A stretch of 64,000 bases of DNA from a virus: IMG/VR virus record IMGVR_UViG_3300020391_000003, positions 1 through 64,000 of that record; one strand, written 5' to 3'. The notes below the pieces were generated by a model. The model ran no database searches, was not told the origin of the DNA, and worked only from the letters and a program-made list of their open reading frames with translations. Every line of letters begins with the position of its first letter. The stretch's first letter is position 1. Position numbers and translations under genes: made by a program. Positions 16,382-63,769 of the stretch are shown piece after piece.

Positions 16382-17218
16382 ATGGCAAAAACAAAAACAA
16401 CAGCAGATAACTCAGTAACTTTCGATTCGGTATTAGAATCCGCAGAAATAACAAACAAGGCAATTGAATACGCAAAAAACTATAAAGATGGGCCTGGTAA
16501 ATTTAAAAGAAATTCATTTGGATTACTTGACAATGTCGATTATCATTTTAATGATGACGGATCAGTAAATTGGAGATCCATGATTGAAGACGAGCATCTT
16601 TTTCCCAACAAAGGATGGTTTACTTTAAGAGGTAAAGACATGCCTAGGTCCGTCAAAGGCCTTCAAGATTATCAACTTTTAATTAAACTAAGCGGTATCA
16701 AAGAACTTGCAAGACTAAGAGGATTTAAAGATGTAAGATATGATATTGTTAAATGCGAAATGGATCATGTAGCAGTAAGCTGCTCAATTGTTTTTCTTCC
16801 CAACTACGAAACAAATGGAGAGCCTGTAATCTTCCAAGATATGGCTAACGCTACATTAGAAAATACAAGTAGTTTTGCAACAAAGTTTTTAGAAACTATT
16901 GCTTGTAACAGAGCTTTTGTTCGCTGTGTAAGAAATTTTCTTAATGTTCACATTGTGGGTGATGATGAAATTGACAAGTCTAACAATAAAACTTCTGCAG
17001 TTCAAAATAATATTTCTCCAACACTTACTCCATCAACTATGATAGAAAATTTAGCAAAAGAAAAATTAAATTGTGCAAGTTTTGAAGAATTTAAAGTTTA
17101 TCTTAGAGATTGGTGGAAAGATGGAAAATACAAAAATGATTCTGTAAAAGAATGGAATGACTTCTCAGATATTCCTGCTACCCAATCCAGAATATTAATG
17201 AAAGTTATGAACGACTAG
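16382..17218 (+). CDS. Rad52/Sak-like single-strand annealing protein (putative)
   Basis: LLIKLSGIKELA...VAVSCSI...ETIACNRAFVRCVRNFLNVHIVGDDEID resembles the A-E-T-R-A-x-x-R-A...G-x-x-E motif. Confidence 0.5.
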   Translation: MAKTKTTADNSVTFDSVLESAEITNKAIEYAKNYKDGPGKFKRNSFGLLDNVDYHFNDDGSVNWRSMIEDEHLFPNKGWFTLRGKDMPRSVKGLQDYQLLIKLSGIKELARLRGFKDVRYDIVKCEMDHVAVSCSIVFLPNYETNGEPVIFQDMANATLENTSSFATKFLETIACNRAFVRCVRNFLNVHIVGDDEIDKSNNKTSAVQNNISPTLTPSTMIENLAKEKLNCASFEEFKVYLRDWWKDGKYKNDSVKEWNDFSDIPATQSRILMKVMND

Positions 17219-53035: not shown

Positions 53036-54577
53036 ATGCCTAATAAAAGAATCTCAGATTTACCAGAGCGACAGACTTTGTTCTCTGATTCCCCGCCGGA
53101 ACCTTTTCCGAGTTTTGCTAGGGCAACCACGCCTTCTACCAATGATCAAAATTCTTTTTTATTAATTGCAAGACCAAAAGTTAGAAACGAAAAAATTTCT
53201 TTTGCAAATTTAAGAGCATCTATTTTAGACAATTCAATTTATTTAACAGGAGAACAATTAGCAAGCGGAAAAAAAACATTTGTTGATCCTTGTACATTTT
53301 TGGGTAGAACAAATATTAGTGAAGCTATAGATATTACAGAAACTGGAGATATCAGTGGAAATATTTTTGTCGGAGACAGCGGATTATATCAAAACCTTGG
53401 AGTCGGCAGCAACTTTTTTGAACGTCACTCAGATACAGATGATACTTTAGACATCTCTGGAGATTCATGCTTTATTGAAGATATCACTCAAACAGGAAAT
53501 CGCAGACAACTCGGCAATCTTTTTCAAATAGGAGACATTTCTTTATCTGGAGATTATTTTATAACTGGAAATTCTAAAATATTTGGAAATACAGTTCAAT
53601 TTGGAGATATTAATTTTTTAGGCAGTTTTTCTCAAACAGGAGATAACTATACTCAGGGCAAAAAAACAATTACCGGCAATATTGATCTAGGAGAATATTT
53701 ATATCACCATAATGATGTAGATACTTTCGTTAGGTTAAGAAATCACAATATTGATCTCAATGCAGGTTCACAAACTAAAATTCAGCTACAAGAAAACAAT
53801 GGTAATGACGATGATGAAATGATCTTTACTACTAGCGGCGTAGAACAAATGCGCTTAACTCAAAAAGGATTTTTGTCAATTAACTCTTCTGAACCTATAG
53901 GAGAACTTTCAGTTTCAGGAAAAGCTTTTACTCAAGATGGATTTATTTTCGACAACCCAGATAAAAAATTCTATAAAATTTTTGGAGGAGATGACGAAAC
54001 CGTTGCGTTCAAAACATCTTTAACAAACAACCTTTCTGAAAGTTCTCAAGTTGGACAAGATGAATATAAAATTAATTTTCCTAAAACATTTAAAACCCAT
54101 CCAGTTGTATCTGTTAGTTTAGAACATAGAAACGGAGGAATTATTCCTCCACTAATTATTACTGATGTTACACGGCATGATTTTATTGTAAAATTTGCAG
54201 CCCCTCTTTTGGATAAAGAATATTTTTTATATACTACTGCCTTAAGTCCATCAATATTAAACGAAGTTAATGGCATTTATTATGACGAATATCCTCATGT
54301 AACTTGTTCCGACCACGCGCAAAATAGACACGGCATACAAAGATTTTATACTAGATTACAAAAAGATTCAGATGAACATGAAATATTCTTTCCTTTTGGA
54401 TATCAAGACGCGCCAGCAGTTACTTTAACATTAGAAGGGCCAAACAAGATTATTCCTTACGCAATATCTAGTGTAAACAGTAGTTCATACACTATAATTT
54501 TCGGAACAAATGTCAATCAAGATTACACAGTACATACATTTTCTAGTTTTGAGGGAACAAAAAGGCTTGCATTATGA
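53036..54577 (+). CDS. Fibre/whisker-like protein with two C-terminal H-type-lectin-like domains
   Basis: NKRISDL N-terminus, TG/SG-rich beta repeats, YKINFPKTFKTHPVVSVSLE and HEIFFPFGYQDAPAVTLTLE. Confidence 0.6.
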   Translation: MPNKRISDLPERQTLFSDSPPEPFPSFARATTPSTNDQNSFLLIARPKVRNEKISFANLRASILDNSIYLTGEQLASGKKTFVDPCTFLGRTNISEAIDITETGDISGNIFVGDSGLYQNLGVGSNFFERHSDTDDTLDISGDSCFIEDITQTGNRRQLGNLFQIGDISLSGDYFITGNSKIFGNTVQFGDINFLGSFSQTGDNYTQGKKTITGNIDLGEYLYHHNDVDTFVRLRNHNIDLNAGSQTKIQLQENNGNDDDEMIFTTSGVEQMRLTQKGFLSINSSEPIGELSVSGKAFTQDGFIFDNPDKKFYKIFGGDDETVAFKTSLTNNLSESSQVGQDEYKINFPKTFKTHPVVSVSLEHRNGGIIPPLIITDVTRHDFIVKFAAPLLDKEYFLYTTALSPSILNEVNGIYYDEYPHVTCSDHAQNRHGIQRFYTRLQKDSDEHEIFFPFGYQDAPAVTLTLEGPNKIIPYAISSVNSSSYTIIFGTNVNQDYTVHTFSSFEGTKRLAL

Positions 54578-56598
54578 ATAAAGATAATCGTATATCAAAT
54601 TTATTTCACAATAAAAAACTTATTTCTGCTGGCCTTGAGCCTTTTCCGCATACTGCCGTTTCAGGAAATAAAGATGATGATGTATTATTTCTTATTGCAA
54701 ATTCTGGCGAATATAATGAAAAAATAAAATTTAAAAACTTAAAAAAATCTATACTAGATAATGTTGTATTTCTTACCGGCAATCAATTAATTAGTGGAGA
54801 AAAAACGTTTGCAGATCCATGCACATTTTTAAGCACAATTTATGTAAATGAAATAATTGATATAACCCAAACAGGAGATATCAGCGGTAATATTTTTGTA
54901 GGAGAAACAGGTTTATTTGAAAAAGTTGGCATTGGACTTGACTTTACAGACAGAAGAATAATAAAAGACATTTATAGCGATTTTCCAAATTTTTCAGATG
55001 GTTATGTTGATTACAATTACGGAGGAGGCATTGACCCTACAACTCATCAAGAAGGACTAGACTTTATTGGAATTGGTCAGCCTAATTTAGACACAACAAT
55101 ATCTTCTTATTCTATATATGAACCTTCAGGATATTATAATTCCACAATTCCTTTGTCTCAACAAAATTTTGAAAACGATTTAACTTTAGACGGACAATCT
55201 TTTTTGCCGAGCGACATTCACAGAGAAATGGGAGGAGCATGGGTAGGCATTGATTTTCCAGAACCTTTTAATTACAGAGGATTTTCTGTTTTCAGATCAG
55301 ACATTGAAAATTCAGCAGAAAAATTCAAAGTGGTTGCCTCAAATAACGGCGTAGACTGGAAAACTATTCATACCGAAAATAATTTAGATGCAGGATCATA
55401 TGCAGAAACGGGACAAGCATCTATTTTTTCTTTGAGTGATTATCATCCAGAAAAGTATTCAAAATATAGACTAGTTGCACAAAAAATAATTTCTGGTAAT
55501 TTTTGGGAATTTGCTCATTTTAATTTTTCTGGAGTAGAATTTTATGAACATGTTAAAACCGTTCATCCACAATATACTCTTCATGTATCAGGAGATTCTG
55601 TTTTTATTGGAGACATAACTCATACTGGAAACTTAAGACAAGAAGGCAATTCTTTAAGGATTGGAGATACAGATCTTATAGGTAATTACAATATCACAGG
55701 AGATTCTAAAATAGTTGGGGATACAGTGCAAACTGGGGATTCACACCTTTTTGGAGATGTTTTTAGAACAGGGGATGTTTTTATTAAAGGAAGCGAAACA
55801 ACAACCGAAGATATACATCTTGGAGAATATTTATATCATCTCGACGATCCAGATACATTTCTAAGATTCACAGATGATAAGCTCGAACTTACTGCGGGTT
55901 CAGGAGTCAAAGTTATTTTAGAAGAAAACGAAAATGATACTTTAAAATTTTTTACGAGTGGCATTGAGCAACTTAGATTAACAAATGAAGGATTTTTAGG
56001 AGTAAATACAGAAACACCTGTCGGAGAACTTTCTGTTACAGGAGATTCTTATTTAGAATGTTTGTTTGTAACTGGAGAAGATGGACAATGGGAAAAAGTA
56101 GTTGGCGGATCTGATGAAGTTGTTTCATTTTCTACTGATTTATTTGGAGGAGACGATCTTTATAAAATAGATTTTCCAAAAACCTTTGGAGAAAATCCAG
56201 CGGTTACCGTTTCCTTAGAAAATGATCAAGGAGGTCCAATTGTTCCATACATGATTTCTGGAGTAAATGGTCACGAATACTTTATAAACTTTGGATCAAA
56301 TTTATTAAATGATGGATACACAGTTCATACATCCGCAAGAGGTATAGGTCAATCTTCAATAAATAAAACAACAACACAATCATTTATTACTGAATTAACT
56401 CCTCAAGCAGGAAAAGACATATACGAAATATTTTATCCTAATCAATTTCACTCAAATCCAATTATATCAACTGCATTAGAAAACGAAATAGAAATACTGC
56501 CATATGTTATTTCTGGAATTTCAGATAGTTCATATAAGGTTGTATTTGGGCGTCCGCTTCCTAATTCCTGTAAAATTCATACACATGCAGTCAGATAA
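54574..56598 (+). CDS. Paralogous fibre protein with an inserted discoidin (F5/8C)-like domain
   Basis: Co-linear with 53036-54577, plus WVGIDFPEP...FKVVASNNGVDWKTI...YSKYRL. Confidence 0.65.
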   Translation: MNKDNRISNLFHNKKLISAGLEPFPHTAVSGNKDDDVLFLIANSGEYNEKIKFKNLKKSILDNVVFLTGNQLISGEKTFADPCTFLSTIYVNEIIDITQTGDISGNIFVGETGLFEKVGIGLDFTDRRIIKDIYSDFPNFSDGYVDYNYGGGIDPTTHQEGLDFIGIGQPNLDTTISSYSIYEPSGYYNSTIPLSQQNFENDLTLDGQSFLPSDIHREMGGAWVGIDFPEPFNYRGFSVFRSDIENSAEKFKVVASNNGVDWKTIHTENNLDAGSYAETGQASIFSLSDYHPEKYSKYRLVAQKIISGNFWEFAHFNFSGVEFYEHVKTVHPQYTLHVSGDSVFIGDITHTGNLRQEGNSLRIGDTDLIGNYNITGDSKIVGDTVQTGDSHLFGDVFRTGDVFIKGSETTTEDIHLGEYLYHLDDPDTFLRFTDDKLELTAGSGVKVILEENENDTLKFFTSGIEQLRLTNEGFLGVNTETPVGELSVTGDSYLECLFVTGEDGQWEKVVGGSDEVVSFSTDLFGGDDLYKIDFPKTFGENPAVTVSLENDQGGPIVPYMISGVNGHEYFINFGSNLLNDGYTVHTSARGIGQSSINKTTTQSFITELTPQAGKDIYEIFYPNQFHSNPIISTALENEIEILPYVISGISDSSYKVVFGRPLPNSCKIHTHAVR

Positions 56599-56623: not shown

Positions 56624-59600
56624 ATGATTTCTAAACATATATTTACTTCGGATGTTATTAGTGGAAAGCAGCTATATATCGACGAACTTCATTCAACTGG
56701 AGACTCAATTGTAGCAAGCACTGATTTTAATATTGAAAATAATTTAAAAGTAGGAGAAGACTTATCGATCGGCGGAAACAGCGTTCTTTCAGGCAACGCA
56801 AATATCACTGGAGATCTTTTTGTTGGACAGCATTTCACTGTTAAAGGAATAACAACAACCCTTGATACAGTCAACGTTACAGGTGATGCAAATATCACTG
56901 GAGATCTTTTTGTTGGCCGCAATCTTACTGTCAAAGGAACAACCACAACTCTTGACACAGTTAACGTTACGGTTGATGACCATAATATTGAGCTTGGATC
57001 AGTTGATAATCCAACAAATATTACGGCAGAAGGTGGAGGAATCACGCTCAAAGGAGATGAAGATAAAACTTTTAATTGGCAAGCAAATTATAATGGCTCT
57101 TGGCTTTCTAGTGAAAATTTAGGAGTTGCAGATGGCAAATATGTATTTACAGACAAAGTTCGCGCAAGAGATGGTGCAGGCTTATTTTTAGAAGATGACG
57201 GAGGAAATGGAATTTTTATTAAAAATGGCGGCAATGTAGGTATTGGTTCTGCAGATTTTCCTGGCAGCGTTCAAGGAAATTTACATGTAAATGACAGTAG
57301 CTCTGACAGTCGAATTTATATAACAAGCTCAAACGACTCTGCTGCTTCTCTTCTATTTGGAAACCAAAGTCGCTCTTTCAAAGCAGGTGTTATCTATGAT
57401 AATTCCACTGATTCTTTAAACTTTTGGGGTAACAAAGATGGCGCAGAACAGACAGCAAAAAGAGTAACTATCGACTCCGTCGGCAAGGTAGGTATTGGTA
57501 CTACTGCACCAAAAGCAAAACTGCAAGTAAATGGAGATATATTATTTGGTGATGGCGCGGCTCAAAATGATATTGGTGCCGCCTCTGGCACTGGATTTGC
57601 AACTGGTGGAGACTGGCATATAGGATTATCTTCACATGGCGGCTCGGTTGTAGATGCAAATGGGGCTACCGCAGATGGATTTGCTGGTTTAAAAATTAAT
57701 TCCTATATGGATACCGATAACAGCGGAACTATTGATGCTGATGAATCGGGCGACAAATATAGTCAAGACTTAGAATTTTATACTCATCACTTCGGAGAAC
57801 CAACTCAACCGATGTCTATGGTTATCAAGAATAATGGTAATGTTGGAATTGGTGTTGATTTAGAGAGTTCGCTTCAGAGGGCTGTTGCTCGTTATAAATT
57901 GCACGTTGCGGGTGATGGATATTTCGCAGGAAATTCTATATCGAATGTCGCACCTGCTGTTGGTGTATATCTAGGTAAATCTGAAAGTAACTCAGATCAT
58001 CATGTTTCCATAATTTCGAGTGATAACCAAAACGGATACATAGATTTCTCAAACACAACAAGAGACGCTATTGGAAGAATATTATATGCCAATTCGAACT
58101 CTTCGGGCGTTGGAAGCGGACAAGGTATGTATTTCTATACTGATTATGCAAATAATATAGACAACCCTGATGTTTTCATCGGTCCAGATGGCAAAGTAGG
58201 TATTGGTACAAGTAGTCCTTCTGAAGACCTAACTATTGCTGGAACAAAACAAGGTTTAGAGATTCGAGACGCAACTATAGATTTTGCTATACTTAACTCA
58301 AATGGAGATTCTAAAAAAGCTCAAATAAAAGCCGTCAATGTTAGCAACAAAGGCGATGCAAGTGACACATCTTCAGAATTAATATTTAGCACAACTGCAA
58401 CCCATAACTTTGCAGAACGTATGCGTATTGATCACGCTGGCAATGTAGGTATTGGTACTACGAGTCCTGATCATAAATTACATATTGCTGGTGGAACTCC
58501 ATCGATGAAACTTGAAGGTTCGCAACCAAGAATATGGCTAAGAGAAACTGATCAAACAGATTTAAATACCCTAATTAGAAATAACGGTGGTATTTTTGAA
58601 ATTGATACAGTAAGCGATGCAGATGCTTATATTCAAAATAGATTTTCAATTAATCATGGAAATGGTAATGTCAGGATTAATGATTTACTTGGTATTGGTA
58701 AAGATCCAGATGGATATCATCTTGATGTTGCGGCTCCTGGGGCTGGTGCAATGGGTTTCCGAGTACAAACAAATAGTACTTCATCAAATGCGATAGTACA
58801 TATTGGTAGCGGAGGAAGCTCAGACATTAAATTTAAAGTAGACGGAGAAGGAAGCGTAACAACTGCAAAAGATGTTACAATTGGTGGAGATCTTACAGTT
58901 AATGGTACAACCACTACGGTCAATTCAACCACGGTTACTGTTGACGATAAAAATATCGAACTTGGATCAGTTGCAAGTCCAACAAATACGACTGCAGACG
59001 GAGGAGGAATTACTTTAAAAGGCGCAACAGATAAAGAATTCAAATGGACCAATGCGTCTAATTCATGGAACTCTAGCGAAAACCTAGGAATTGCCGATGG
59101 CAAATATGTATTTACAGATAAAGTTCGCGCAAGAGATGGCGCAGGCTTGTTTCTAGAAGATGACGGAGGAAATGGAATTTTTGTACAAGATGGCGGCAAT
59201 GTAGGTATTGGTACTACGAGTCCTTCTACCGCTCTTGATATCGTTGGTGACATTACAGTAGGCTCGAGGAGTTTTGTTACGAATGACGCATCGGTACAAG
59301 CACGTTCTAGTCAAGGTGTATCTGACGGTGGAAATTCTGTTAGGGGGAGTAACTTAATACTTAAAGCAGGCATCGGAACTGGATCTGCTGATAATGGTTA
59401 TATTGAGTTCCACACAGAAGATTCTACGACAATTCACGGTAATGGACTACCTCACGGCTCTGGTAGTGCTAAGATGCGTATCGACTCCGCAGGCAGAGTA
59501 GGTATTGGCACTACGAGTCCCAATAATCAACTAACAATAGGGACTGATAATAATACATCTTCTTCTATCGGTTTCAGAACTACTCAATTTGCCGGTATCG

Positions 59601-62600
59601 CGGAAATTGTCGCAGAACATGTAGATGGAACCTCGGCTGATGGTAGACTTCATTTTAAAACTCGGAAGACAGGTGACGCGCACACACGATTAACAATCAA
59701 TGAAGACGGCAATGTAGGTATTGGTACTTCTCCCTCAACTGATCGTCCGTTTATATATTCAAAAACACATGGTGATCATAGTTCTGCTATGTATTTTGAT
59801 TTTCATTATGGAAATCAAGCTCCAGGATACACAGCATCAGGTTTGACTATAGCAAACTTAGCTGGTCCTGCTGATGGTGACGGTACTTCTGATCAGCTTA
59901 AAGCCACTTCATTTCTAAATCTTGCAGTAAGATCACCAAATTTAAACAATAACCAGCATGGAACAGTTGGCTACATGGCATTGTCCACTCCGCTTGATGA
60001 TGACGGAACTAGTGACGGAGTCTATGGTACTGGTCAAATTGATTTTTATATCAGAAATGATTCTGCTGCATATGCGTTTCCAAATAGTCCACGAGTGCCA
60101 TCAGCCAATTGGATGTCATCGTTGATGACAATTAAATCTGACGGCAATGTAGCTATTGGTGCTGCGAGGCCTAACAGCGCAACAACTGTAAATAATGTTC
60201 TTCAGGCTCACGGAGGCATGACGATCGCAACAAACGAAGATAATGACACTCCCGAATTAACTTTAAAAAGAACCGCGTCCACTAGCTCAAGCGGTACTGA
60301 TGACATTGTTGATATTCGCGTGGGAGACAGTTCGCTAAATTTTGTTATCAATAATGATAGTGACGGAGATGCAGGAACATTCAGTTTTAATAAAATGGGA
60401 GGAGGCGCACAAATACCTGCAGATGTTATTCTTGGCAGCGTACATCTTGAGAATCGCTTAAGACACAACGGGGACACAGACACATATCTTGAGTTTCACA
60501 ATCAAGACGAATTTCGCGTGGTAACTGGTGGTTCAGAAAGACTTGAAGTTACAAACACGGCGATTGCTCTTAAGAGAGATACTGCTATCACTGGAGGCCT
60601 TACAATCAGTGGAGACCTCACAGTAAATGGAGATACGGTTACGCTCAACACCACGAATTTAGAGGTAGAAGACAAACTTGTTACGGTTGCTAAAAATGCC
60701 ACCAACGCCGTCACAGCCAACAATTGCGGACTTGATTTTGGAGGTCAATACAAATTAACTTTTCGAGACGAATCTACAAATAAACTAGTAATTGAAGATA
60801 CAGCCGACGATGTCGGTTCTCTTGAAATCCAAGGAACCGGTGGCGCGCAACTTATACTCCAAGATACCAACTCAACTAACACAACAAATCAAAGTGGAAT
60901 TCTCGCGTGGAAGACTGCTAACGACACCGTTACAGCTGAAGTTGGATTTAGAACCAACAGCGATAGCGATTTTACAATTAGAAATGGTAGTGGCGATATA
61001 GTTCTTAATGGTCAAGATACACGACTAACTGGTACAGGAAATTTATTGATTGAAAATAGCAATAAAATATTACTCGGAAACACTATTGGCAATTCCAACA
61101 CTAGCGCAGCAGATGCGTACATCTCAATTTTTGACATTGGCGCAAACGATAATGTTAAATTAATTGGATTTGGCGAAGGAAACGCTGGAAGCAACTTCTG
61201 GTTTGGCTCTGGCTTTGAACCTGCTAATGAAAATAATTATATATCGTTAAGTACTAGTACAGTTGAAAATGCAATGAGTTGGAAGATGGACGGCAAGGTA
61301 GGTATTGGTACTGATAGTCCCACTTCGATATTTCATGTTAAATCATCGCTAGATGGTCCTATTTTCGATAGTGGTGGCACAGACAATGCAAATCACGCAT
61401 TGCTTGTTCGTGACAGTTCTGCTAATCAGTTGTTGCGTGTAGAAAACAACGGTAATGTAGGTATCGGCACTACGAACCCTGTGGATAAACTGCATATACA
61501 AGGAGACAGCTCTACGGTATATGATGATACTTCAAGTGCAGGTCAAAGAACTAATTCCAACTTGGTTATAGAAAATAAAAATACAGCTGCGAATACATTT
61601 GCCTCTTTAGACTTTGCAACCAATAATAATAGAGTTCTAAATCGTATTATAGGTGGTCATAAAGATTTAACAACCGAAGGATTTTTAGCGTTTGTTACTG
61701 AGAATAATAGTTCAACCTCAGAAAAAATGCGCATCGACTCCTCAGGCAATGTAGGTATTGGTACTACGAGCCCTGATGCGAACCTTCATGTAAGCGGTGC
61801 GTCCAAACTCGACGGAGGAGTAGTCATTACATCAACCGCAAATCAGGCTACTCCTCAACTAACTTTAAGAAGACATACTGACACAAATGAATCTGGTACA
61901 GACGATATAGTAGACATTACTGTTGGAGATAGTCATATGGTTTTCACCATCAATAATGATAGTGACGGAGATGTAGGAACCTATGAATTCAGAAAAACGG
62001 CTGCAGGCGCTGCGATACTAGCTGCTGTAAATTGCGGCACTATAACAACCAATGGCATAATTCGAAAAGATGATGATACAAATACATACCTTCAGTTTCA
62101 TGAAGCAGATCAATTTCGAGTAGTAACGGGTGGAGCAGAAAGACTTGAAGTTACAAATCAACATACCAAAGCTACTGGAAATCTTATAGTTGAAGGTGAT
62201 CTTACAGTAAATGGAGATACGGTTACGCTCAACACCACGAATTTAGAGGTAGAAGACAAACTTGTTACGGTTGCTAAAAATGCCACCAACGCCGTCACAG
62301 CCAACAATTGCGGACTTGATTTTGGAGGTCAATACAAATTAACTTTTCGAGACGAATCTACAAATAAACTAGTAATTGAAGATACAGCCGACAACACCGC
62401 TTCTCTTGAAATTCAAGGTTTTGGTGGCTCACAACTTATACTTCAAGATACCAATTCAACCAATACCACAAATCAATCGGGAGTTGTAGCGTGGAAGCTT
62501 GGCAATGACACGGTTACAGCTGAAGTTGGATTTAGAAACAATGAGGATAGCGATTTTACAATTAGAAATGGTAGTGGCGATGTAGTTCTTTTGGGTCAAG

Positions 62601-63769
62601 ACACACGGCTCACTGGCACAGGAAATTTAATTCTCGAGCAGGGCAACCTTGTCATCAAATCGAGTAGTCACGACGGAACTTTAAGCACTGCAACTCTTAC
62701 AGCAGATAGAACATATACTCTGCCAAATAAAAGCGGTACGGTTGCGATGATCAGCGATATTTCGAACTCACCTTCTCAAACAGACAACAATTTTACAAAC
62801 GCTCTAAAAAGCAAACTGGATGGTATAGCTGCAGGCGCAACAAACGTCACTAACAACAATCAGCTTGCAAATGGCGCGGGATACTTAACTGCCCATCCAA
62901 GTATTTCTGCAGCTAGCTCTTCAAATAATAGTGGCCGAACATATATTCAAGACATCACCGTAGACTCTAATGGTCATGTAACTGGAATTCAAACTGCAAC
63001 AGAAACAGTAGTCAACACCAACACACAACGCACTGACGCAGAAATAAGAACCGCAGTAGGAGGATCATTTCCAAGTTTTACTGCTGCTCAAAATGGTAAA
63101 GTTTTAAAAGTTAACGCTAGCGGAAATTTAGAATGGGACACCGATAATGCTGGAGCAGGATCAACAAGTCCTGGCGGCTCAGATCATCAAGTACAATTCA
63201 ACAACAATGGATCATTTGGGGGTTCTGCTAATTTAAGATTTGATGGAAATAATTTAGTCTGCGCAAATGCATTAATTGCTCAAGCAAATATCGAAGTTGG
63301 TCCAGGCACAGCAGGATTTGCATTTATTGATTTTAAAAACAATAATTCGCAAGATTCCGACATACGTATATCCCAAGGAGTTGGTTCTGGTCAAGCCGAG
63401 CATGATTTATATATAGCCAAAGGACCAAGTTCTTCTCAAGCTACCAATTTACATGTTGAAGGAGACGTTCTTGCATTCTCTGCATCAGACAAAAGATTAA
63501 AAAATAATATTTCAAATATTTCTTCTCCAATTGAAAAAATCAAACAAATAAATGGAGTAAATTTTGAATGGTCAGACAAGCAATCAACTTATAGCGGAAA
63601 AGACGTTGGAGTTATTGCTCAAGAAGTAGAAAAAGTACTACCTGAAGTAGTCACCGAAAGAGAAGATGGTCATCTTGCAGTAAAATATGAAAAAATTATA
63701 CCACTACTTATAGAAGCAATAAAAGATCAACAAAAAGAGATTGAAGAATTAAAGTCAAAATTGTCTTGA
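56624..63769 (+). CDS. Long modular tail fibre with C-terminal peptidase S74 chaperone
   Basis: About 12 G-[NKR]-V-G-I-G junctions, duplicated blocks, and C-terminal ASDKRLKNNI...DVGVIAQEVEKVLPEVV...AVKYEKIIPLLIEAIK. Confidence 0.9.
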   Translation: MISKHIFTSDVISGKQLYIDELHSTGDSIVASTDFNIENNLKVGEDLSIGGNSVLSGNANITGDLFVGQHFTVKGITTTLDTVNVTGDANITGDLFVGRNLTVKGTTTTLDTVNVTVDDHNIELGSVDNPTNITAEGGGITLKGDEDKTFNWQANYNGSWLSSENLGVADGKYVFTDKVRARDGAGLFLEDDGGNGIFIKNGGNVGIGSADFPGSVQGNLHVNDSSSDSRIYITSSNDSAASLLFGNQSRSFKAGVIYDNSTDSLNFWGNKDGAEQTAKRVTIDSVGKVGIGTTAPKAKLQVNGDILFGDGAAQNDIGAASGTGFATGGDWHIGLSSHGGSVVDANGATADGFAGLKINSYMDTDNSGTIDADESGDKYSQDLEFYTHHFGEPTQPMSMVIKNNGNVGIGVDLESSLQRAVARYKLHVAGDGYFAGNSISNVAPAVGVYLGKSESNSDHHVSIISSDNQNGYIDFSNTTRDAIGRILYANSNSSGVGSGQGMYFYTDYANNIDNPDVFIGPDGKVGIGTSSPSEDLTIAGTKQGLEIRDATIDFAILNSNGDSKKAQIKAVNVSNKGDASDTSSELIFSTTATHNFAERMRIDHAGNVGIGTTSPDHKLHIAGGTPSMKLEGSQPRIWLRETDQTDLNTLIRNNGGIFEIDTVSDADAYIQNRFSINHGNGNVRINDLLGIGKDPDGYHLDVAAPGAGAMGFRVQTNSTSSNAIVHIGSGGSSDIKFKVDGEGSVTTAKDVTIGGDLTVNGTTTTVNSTTVTVDDKNIELGSVASPTNTTADGGGITLKGATDKEFKWTNASNSWNSSENLGIADGKYVFTDKVRARDGAGLFLEDDGGNGIFVQDGGNVGIGTTSPSTALDIVGDITVGSRSFVTNDASVQARSSQGVSDGGNSVRGSNLILKAGIGTGSADNGYIEFHTEDSTTIHGNGLPHGSGSAKMRIDSAGRVGIGTTSPNNQLTIGTDNNTSSSIGFRTTQFAGIAEIVAEHVDGTSADGRLHFKTRKTGDAHTRLTINEDGNVGIGTSPSTDRPFIYSKTHGDHSSAMYFDFHYGNQAPGYTASGLTIANLAGPADGDGTSDQLKATSFLNLAVRSPNLNNNQHGTVGYMALSTPLDDDGTSDGVYGTGQIDFYIRNDSAAYAFPNSPRVPSANWMSSLMTIKSDGNVAIGAARPNSATTVNNVLQAHGGMTIATNEDNDTPELTLKRTASTSSSGTDDIVDIRVGDSSLNFVINNDSDGDAGTFSFNKMGGGAQIPADVILGSVHLENRLRHNGDTDTYLEFHNQDEFRVVTGGSERLEVTNTAIALKRDTAITGGLTISGDLTVNGDTVTLNTTNLEVEDKLVTVAKNATNAVTANNCGLDFGGQYKLTFRDESTNKLVIEDTADDVGSLEIQGTGGAQLILQDTNSTNTTNQSGILAWKTANDTVTAEVGFRTNSDSDFTIRNGSGDIVLNGQDTRLTGTGNLLIENSNKILLGNTIGNSNTSAADAYISIFDIGANDNVKLIGFGEGNAGSNFWFGSGFEPANENNYISLSTSTVENAMSWKMDGKVGIGTDSPTSIFHVKSSLDGPIFDSGGTDNANHALLVRDSSANQLLRVENNGNVGIGTTNPVDKLHIQGDSSTVYDDTSSAGQRTNSNLVIENKNTAANTFASLDFATNNNRVLNRIIGGHKDLTTEGFLAFVTENNSSTSEKMRIDSSGNVGIGTTSPDANLHVSGASKLDGGVVITSTANQATPQLTLRRHTDTNESGTDDIVDITVGDSHMVFTINNDSDGDVGTYEFRKTAAGAAILAAVNCGTITTNGIIRKDDDTNTYLQFHEADQFRVVTGGAERLEVTNQHTKATGNLIVEGDLTVNGDTVTLNTTNLEVEDKLVTVAKNATNAVTANNCGLDFGGQYKLTFRDESTNKLVIEDTADNTASLEIQGFGGSQLILQDTNSTNTTNQSGVVAWKLGNDTVTAEVGFRNNEDSDFTIRNGSGDVVLLGQDTRLTGTGNLILEQGNLVIKSSSHDGTLSTATLTADRTYTLPNKSGTVAMISDISNSPSQTDNNFTNALKSKLDGIAAGATNVTNNNQLANGAGYLTAHPSISAASSSNNSGRTYIQDITVDSNGHVTGIQTATETVVNTNTQRTDAEIRTAVGGSFPSFTAAQNGKVLKVNASGNLEWDTDNAGAGSTSPGGSDHQVQFNNNGSFGGSANLRFDGNNLVCANALIAQANIEVGPGTAGFAFIDFKNNNSQDSDIRISQGVGSGQAEHDLYIAKGPSSSQATNLHVEGDVLAFSASDKRLKNNISNISSPIEKIKQINGVNFEWSDKQSTYSGKDVGVIAQEVEKVLPEVVTEREDGHLAVKYEKIIPLLIEAIKDQQKEIEELKSKLS
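60620..60808 (+). repeat. 189-bp direct repeat, copy 1 (identical to 62204-62392)
   Basis: Base-by-base comparison from acagtaaatggagatacgg to gaagatacagccgac shows no mismatch; offset 1584 nt = 528 codons. Confidence 0.9.
62204..62392 (+). repeat. 189-bp direct repeat, copy 2
   Basis: Identical to 60620-60808. Confidence 0.9.

Follow-up and report, generated by a model that had tools for sequence, protein, structure and literature searches.

Codon-locked DNA blocks as probable recombination joints between tail-fibre modules of an uncultured marine phage

In T-even phages, proteins that recognize the host are rebuilt by recombination at short conserved motifs. The motifs of gp37 and the glycine-rich motifs of gp38 serve as sites of exchange in the distal tail-fibre and adhesin genes (Tetart et al. 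1996, 1998, as recounted in passages of Trojet et al. 2011, PMC3157838). We describe here a comparable arrangement in a tail-fibre gene (2381 aa, positions 56624-63769, + strand) of the IMG/VR record IMGVR_UViG_3300020391_000003. Positions refer to the window, that is, the whole stretch of 64,000 nt analysed; it covers the first 64 kb of the genome (184,324 bp, 34% G+C) of an uncultured marine phage. The boundaries between the modules of this fibre are written as one DNA block whose spelling is conserved beyond the demands of the protein, and which probably acts as an in-frame joint for homologous recombination. As in the accounts of gp37 and gp38, short conserved motifs part the hypervariable segments of a host-recognition fibre; the motifs are conserved as DNA beside variable segments, and natural chimeras have their exchange points in or next to them. 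The likeness is one of mechanism, since the protein belongs to an S74/MAT-type β-helix family without homology to gp37 or gp38. Whole modules of 60-170 aa move here, whereas in the T-even case, as recounted, it is loops of one domain. Unlike in gp37 and gp38, module number and order change as well, so that the fibres range from 640 to 2381 aa. In addition, synonymous locking was measured here against controls, and exchange is known here from sequences alone. The locus is a fresh example of conserved-motif fibre rebuilding, a principle already known from T-even phages, and its value lies in breadth and measurement rather than in a new mechanism.

The structural counterpart is found in the mosaic adhesive trimer (MAT) and S74 fibres, among them Bdellovibrio Bd2133 and Bd3182, phage T5 pb1 and the stalk of the K1F endosialidase. 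The Bdellovibrio fibres that have been solved consist of intertwined trimeric β-helix modules with 'capping loops' at their edges, and the capping-loop consensus is common to Bdellovibrio MAT and phage S74 fibres (Caulton et al. 2024, PMC10769870, in the sections drawn on here). Those sections cover the protein motif and the mosaicism; 'recombination' appears in the methods only, and no conservation of the motif as DNA is described in them. Like the MAT/S74 fibres, the fibre of the marine phage has a C-terminal Peptidase_S74 chaperone, repeated modules bounded by capping loops and a mosaic architecture. The carrier, however, is a phage fibre with about 13 modules, unlike the described Bdellovibrio MAT cases. 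Our literature search returned no paper on the DNA conservation of the motif string, and nothing relevant on short conserved synonymous sites in connection with module exchange.

Short DNA elements known as linker or boundary sequences, of the Botstein type, have been proposed to target modular exchange between phage genomes, and mobile promoter stem-loop cassettes of T4-type phages were reportedly described by Arbiol et al. in 2010. There as here, short conserved DNA between unrelated cassettes is the proposed site of homologous exchange. However, those elements are intergenic, non-coding or regulatory, whereas the present one is part of the coding sequence, in frame within a single gene, and must therefore satisfy protein structure too.

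The fibre gene is the last of a block of structural genes. Its product has a conserved N-terminus, an array of about 13 modules and, at aa 2288-2343 (63485-63652, + strand), a Peptidase_S74 intramolecular chaperone domain (Pfam PF13884, E = 4.3e-15). Because of this C-terminal domain, the gene is taken to encode a tail fibre of the endosialidase/T5-pb1 type. Peptidase_S74 is the only Pfam family matched by the protein; no gp37 or gp38 family was detected. A sequence search of the PDB retrieved Bd2133 (8OND, E = 7.4e-12), with alignments spanning the junction motif in three different modules of the window fibre, and also a long-tail-fibre distal subunit, 6F45, whose chain alignment takes in the S-D-[KR]-R-[LI]-K stretch. 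A single-sequence monomer model of aa 577-700 reached a predicted local distance difference test score (pLDDT) of 35, too low to use. Judged by its sequence, with the C-terminal Peptidase_S74 domain and the repeated shaft modules bounded by capping loops, the protein is a member of the S74-type/MAT superfamily.

Thirteen junction-like sites lie in the fibre gene. The initial annotation, made from the letters of the window, had reported an identical 11-nt core at nine of them and one-mismatch variants at two more, and a window search returned exactly these positions. The exact core, GTAGGTATTGG, occurs at 57236, 57488, 58196, 58445, 59201, 59498, 59714, 61298 and 61751, within junction blocks 1 (57230-57259), 2 (57482-57511), 4 (58190-58219), 5 (58439-58468), 7 (59195-59224), 8 (59492-59521), 9 (59708-59737), 11 (61292-61321) and 13 (61745-61774). 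The one-mismatch cores are at 60149 (GTAGCTATTGG, encoding V-A-I-G; block 10, 60143-60172) and 61457 (GTAGGTATCGG; block 12, 61451-61480). Of the remaining two sites, one is a deviant junction at 57842 (GTTGGAATTGG; block 3, 57836-57865), where VDLESS follows in place of TTSP, and the other an additional L-G-I-G junction at 58688 (CTTGGTATTGG; 58682-58711). All core matches are on the + strand, against 0.58 expected by chance, and all copies stand in direct orientation and in codon phase 0 of the open reading frame (ORF) 56624-63769. The core is found nowhere else in the 184,324-bp genome.

At the protein level the core is embedded in the motif (M-R-I-D-x-x-)G-N-V-G-I-G-T-T-S-P-x-x-x-L. In the DNA it forms the centre of a block of 30-45 nt, GGC AAT GTA GGT ATT GGT ACT ACG AGT CCT. 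Block 5 carries this 30-nt consensus in full and has a 30-nt identical run in common with block 7. Pairwise BLASTP of the module interiors gave nothing significant, the best E-value being 0.007; the segments between the junctions are therefore unrelated at the sequence level, as had been claimed.

The identity of the blocks exceeds what protein constraint and codon bias would produce. In the fibre gene, GTA, GGT and ATT account for 0.39, 0.35 and 0.52 of their codon families, which sets the chance of the core at 0.071 per V-G-I site. Its presence at 9 of 11 V-G-I-G sites has p = 2e-9 when synonymous sites are compared with gene-wide usage, and its presence at 8 of 10, after removal of one duplication partner, p = 2.5e-8. 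The same holds for codons -2 to +7 of the block, counted from the junction Val: window junctions that share a residue there also share the codon with a frequency of 0.76, versus 0.36 expected. Conserved residues immediately flanking the block, used as controls, show a codon identity of 0.36 versus 0.35 expected. In the rest of the genome, G-I-G (n = 14) is never spelt GGTATTGGT, T-T-S (n = 14) is spelt freely and in no case like the block, and V-G-I-G, which occurs three times beyond the fibre gene, is written with different codons. GGA makes up 0.51 of the Gly codons in other genes, in agreement with the remark that the neighbouring genes favour it. Codon bias and codon-pair preference are thus ruled out by the core frequency, the pairwise test and the free spelling elsewhere in the genome. 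The unconserved control codons and the unrelated interiors likewise dispose of recent whole-module duplication.

Relatives were collected in two ways: IMG/VR and metagenomes were searched with the gene upstream of the fibre gene (54574-56598) as the anchor, and the protein collection with the conserved fibre N-terminus. This yielded twelve distinct fibre alleles at the same locus (640, 761, 1057, 1086, 1175, 1212, 1271, 1426, 1683, 1774, 1848 and 2381 aa), as well as one near-identical strain, L132, with a fibre of 1853 aa. The flanking genes of these genomes are 70-97% identical as DNA. Among isolated-phage GenBank records, megablast detected no close relatives, but only short blocks and distant protein matches.

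Codon use was compared with gene-wide frequencies at 56 non-redundant junctions of the twelve alleles. The locked stretch extends from codon -7 to +7, with the consensus CGT ATC GAC TCC nnn GGC AAT GTA GGT ATT GGT ACT ACG AGT CCT. GGC is used with a frequency of 0.87 against 0.21 gene-wide (p = 2e-25), GGT 0.89 against 0.29, ATT 0.98 against 0.56, ACT 0.96 against 0.37, ACG 0.88 against 0.10 (p = 1e-24) and AGT 0.85 against 0.20. In the upstream part, ATC reaches 0.62 against 0.16, GAC 0.83 against 0.31 and TCC 0.53 against 0.06. For the six codons from GGC to AGT, p-values range from 1e-13 to 1e-25. Conversely, conserved residues outside the block (Asp at +8, Lys at +10, Leu at +11, Glu at -10) follow gene-wide usage. 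The Leu at +11 provides an internal control: it is kept in 49 of the 56 junctions, yet all six of its codons appear at background rates. The alternative that GTA-GGT-ATT is merely the modal codon string of the gene, which the initial annotation had set against its own reading, fails both on this locking and on the low chance of the core per site. The core itself proved to be conserved, but not to be the unit; the true unit is the 30-45-nt block, and the Val wobble within the core is its least constrained site across the alleles (GTA 0.66). As a baseline, when two of these genomes have the same residue in the orthologous anchor gene, they use the same codon for it with a frequency of only 0.56-0.71. 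Between the window and L002, an orthologous module has 66% DNA identity, while the blocks have 90-97%.

Homology between alleles also tends to end at the blocks. L129 and L130 are 97.5% identical over 3376 nt, from the anchor gene into the fibre gene as far as the final bases of a junction block; past that point they are unrelated. Homology of the window with L129, L130 and L135 stops at 57252, inside block 1. An 88%-identity segment common to the window and the N-terminal module of L129 stops at 59218, inside block 7, and homology with L129 starts about 24 nt upstream of the L-G-I-G junction (58682-58711). In a strict set, drawn from all pairs and limited to segments no shorter than 200 nt and no less than 93% identical, 26 sharp ends lie in the junction-bearing array; 24 of them fall between -10 and +32 of the junction Val codon, where 6.8 would be expected. 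These 26 ends cannot be counted as independent, since both partners of an event display it and some ends are inherited; by our estimate they represent about ten events, a number still well in excess of chance. When looser segments are admitted, 54 of 112 ends fall in the same interval versus 21 expected.

Other ends recur in the C-terminal third of the fibre, which has no junction motif, and at a second DNA-conserved block. The latter, G-G-D-L-T-V-N-G-T-T-T-T-V-N-S-T-T at 58881-58948 (+ strand), has four copies in the fibre gene, the others lying near 56904, 60597 and 62181, and its G-G-D-L-T-V-N-G-T-T-T-T part marks a recurrent second class of homology ends. Indeed, the homology between L129 and L130 restarts there. 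Over its 68 nt the block is 85% identical, including most synonymous sites, to the gene for a structural protein of the T4-like Synechococcus phage ACG-2014d, a quite different type of phage. It may represent a second class of joint that is common to marine phage families.

In the twelve alleles, the same junction block separates different sets of modules. When the fibres are cut at the motif, the modules cluster in families that recur at different ranks. In five alleles, for instance, a C-A pair of modules is found at ranks 6-7, 2-3, 4-5, 5-6 and 4-5; families D, E, F, G, Q and R change position too, and many modules are found in one allele only. The S74 chaperone exists in two allelic forms, which reassort among the relatives. 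Together with the abrupt break between L129 and L130 and the ends that cluster on the block, the twelve alleles support the suggestion that in-frame crossovers at the junctions exchange, add or remove cassettes. The gain, loss and reordering of modules at the motif that was anticipated among related genomes is likewise apparent; the sole indel between near-identical strains lies elsewhere, in a long repeat (see below).

Codon locking, module shuffling and the breakpoints can be brought together in one scheme, which we regard as the probable one: the blocks would be in-frame homologous-recombination joints between the β-helix modules of an S74-type trimeric fibre. The shaft would be a chain of such modules, each ending in a capping loop of the G-N-V-G-I-G-T-T-S-P type, with the motif written, in this phage lineage, as one DNA block of about 30-45 nt in a fixed codon phase and direct orientation. 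The blocks may then act as short homology patches, within which recombination would start or be resolved, either during co-infection or between copies in one genome. Because they are direct, in phase and located at structural boundaries, a crossover between two blocks would give an in-frame and probably foldable product, i.e. a chimera whose modules have been swapped, added, lost or moved. Repeated exchange, together with short-patch conversion, would hold the spelling alike across the exchanging gene pool, and modules with a common spelling would stay exchangeable.

We infer that recombination would be carried out by the UvsX-like recombinase of the phage itself or by the host RecA. A UvsX-like member of the RecA family is the one clear recombination enzyme detected in the genome; it is encoded outside the window at genome positions 164899-165498 (- strand; locus L139, 1099-2205; PF00154, 60 bits; phrog_97, E = 1.9e-37). 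The annealase that the initial annotation had invoked was not confirmed. The ORF called Rad52-like (16382-17218, + strand, 278 aa) sits between glycosyltransferase genes; searched by sequence against Pfam, PHROGs and the PDB, it shows no sign of Rad52, Sak or RecT, with no Pfam match even at E-values up to 10, no PHROG match and no PDB match. Language-model Atlas leads for this ORF (0.89, below the reliability mark) point to clusters of which 19-20% of members are SSAP_Sak or Rad52. The Rad52 (PF04098) and RecT family profiles match nothing in the genome. An invertase shufflon of the Min, Cin or Rci type was rejected, the cores being all direct repeats on the + strand and the genome containing no match to the Resolvase family. 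A diversity-generating retroelement was also discarded: RVT_1, the reverse transcriptase family, has no match in the 184-kb genome, and variation proceeds by whole modules rather than by adenine-directed point changes.

Several observations weigh against the use of the blocks as joints. Exact runs common to the window blocks are at most 30 nt long and reach 20 nt or more in only 8 of 78 pairs, and about 30 nt of exact identity is the lower limit for efficient homologous recombination; such runs are short, yet probably usable by phage recombination systems. Homogenization of spelling within each genome is weak (p = 0.11 for the Val wobble, p = 0.015 for Asn). The one difference seen between near-identical genomes lies away from the blocks. 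L132, an independent assembly with 99.4-99.9% identity, differs from the window fibre solely by the absence of 1584 nt (528 aa) between the copies of a long direct repeat of 435 nt (60611-61045 and 62195-62629, + strand, both in frame), and the crossover falls in this repeat rather than at a junction block. The missing stretch may have been lost by genuine unequal crossing-over, or the repeat may have collapsed when short reads were assembled. Furthermore, all relatives are metagenome assemblies. Finally, selection for foldable chimeras would by itself leave breakpoints at the boundaries, so that their position is no proof that the DNA block is the substrate. This last point leads to the most serious of the rival readings, in which illegitimate or homeologous exchange occurs rarely and anywhere, only chimeras joined at capping loops fold, and the locking is a passive concerted evolution by ectopic gene conversion, without any role as a handle. 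That the junction is a structural boundary fits this reading, as do the orthologous blocks of L129 and L130, which differ at 2-4 sites per ~30 nt while their flanks are otherwise identical nearby, a pattern that suits patchy conversion. Mismatch density is about 10% in the blocks versus 4.3% in the rest of the shared fibre part. However, 24 of 26 ends are seamless joins that lack indels and keep exactly one block at each boundary, and purely intragenic conversion does not explain a spelling common to genomes whose neighbouring genes are 70-77% identical. Conversion is itself recombination at the block, so that the two readings overlap and differ only in whether crossovers use it. We consider the passive version possible but rather unlikely, and the block would presumably be a handle for exchange rather than its by-product.

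Selection on the message or its translation is a much weaker contender. The block, which lies at a domain boundary, could be a slow patch of rare codons (TCC, ACG, GGC, CGT) for the stepwise folding of modules, or else an RNA structure or binding site. Several of the locked codons are indeed rare in this AT-rich genome, and GGC for the first Gly, GGT for the second and AGT for Ser recur weakly across unrelated viruses among the matches listed. Nevertheless, one particular rare codon is kept (ACG and not ACC; GGC and not GGG), half of the locked codons are common, the spelling varies between lineages of similar G+C, and G-I-G and T-T-S are under no such constraint elsewhere in the genome. As an RNA element, the block has no Rfam match and no stable or shared fold; its z-scores (+0.5 to -1.2) are no better than those of shuffles. 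GANTC sites, of the CcrM/HinfI type, offer no explanation: the genome has 612 of them against ~550-580 expected, they occur in the fibre gene at normal density, and only 5 of the 13 junctions contain one. The supply of phage tRNA was equally rejected, for the single tRNA-Thr(TGT), at genome positions 81387-81462, reads ACA and perhaps ACG, leaving the whole block unexplained. Altogether we hold this reading to be improbable. Still less credit is due to the idea that the pattern is an artefact or trivial, arising from codon bias or recent tandem duplication, with 'shuffled' relatives that are assemblies made chimeric at the repeat. Two junction pairs do sit in internal duplications (blocks 10 and 13 are the left edges of copies 1 and 2 of a large one), the relatives are without exception assemblies, and the L132 difference could be such a collapse. 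Yet codon bias is rejected by the tests above, as is duplication by the control codons and the interiors, and the first ten modules of the window fibre are reproduced in L132. Several alleles occur in independent contigs or samples (L003 and L004; L128 and L129; P0006 on 2, P0007 on 3 and P0008 with 17 member sequences), which makes assembly chimeras unlikely. Exact runs of up to 30 nt are shorter than the usual final k-mers of assemblers, which also counts against an artefact.

The protein motif is widespread, with at least 212 sites in about 120 viral contigs. The idea of one DNA core recurring as a signal in fibres of unrelated viruses was not borne out: the core is present at 22 of 212 sites among the matches listed, which rules out a universal DNA signal, and the match to the lineage spelling equals the expectation for independent sites. 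In place of a universal signal there are lineage-specific spellings. In a wider sample of viral fibre genes with at least six junctions, codon identity within the block exceeds the expectation from the gene's own usage in most genes, whereas that at control positions does not. The consensus spelling varies by lineage; one gene, for example, has GTTGGTATAGG at 11 of its 14 sites, and another has GTCGGCATCGG at 5 of 5. These spellings fit homogenization within exchanging gene pools and argue against a sequence-specific enzyme site or a single translational optimum. They also invite a bolder proposal, which is attractive although on balance doubtful, that the block is a selected 'recombination handle' common to the S74/MAT-type fibres of many phages and some bacteria, with spelling dialects that decide which partners can trade modules. 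If so, the block would define exchange communities, and the evolution of host range would be modular and fast.

Tail fibres set host range, and the exchange of putative receptor-binding cassettes at the blocks may alter it. The probable joints described above would amount to a natural cut-and-join rule for fibre modules, operating in frame, at a known structural boundary and marked in the DNA. Such a rule would be of use for interpreting fibre diversity in marine viromes and for designing chimeric fibres of laboratory phages. The locus is also a clear and measured instance in which a factor other than the protein keeps synonymous sites in place. It thereby touches a long-standing debate: whether short homologies steer phage mosaicism, or whether mosaics arise at random and are filtered afterwards.

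Two minor features of the region remain to be mentioned. The N-terminal part of the fibre gene contains a tandem repeat of 90 nt (30 aa) at 56787-56966, in two copies with 82% identity; relatives have longer runs of similar short repeats, e.g. 'DVYANENVNIQKNLNVTGTSTF' in L001. The two genes upstream of the fibre gene, 53036-54577 and 54574-56598 (both + strand), are apparent paralogues whose products resemble each other at the C-terminal end (…FG…IHT…). The second of them, which served as the anchor, has a weak match to F5/8 type C (discoidin) domains (E = 0.0014). These paralogue-like genes may encode further proteins that contact the host.

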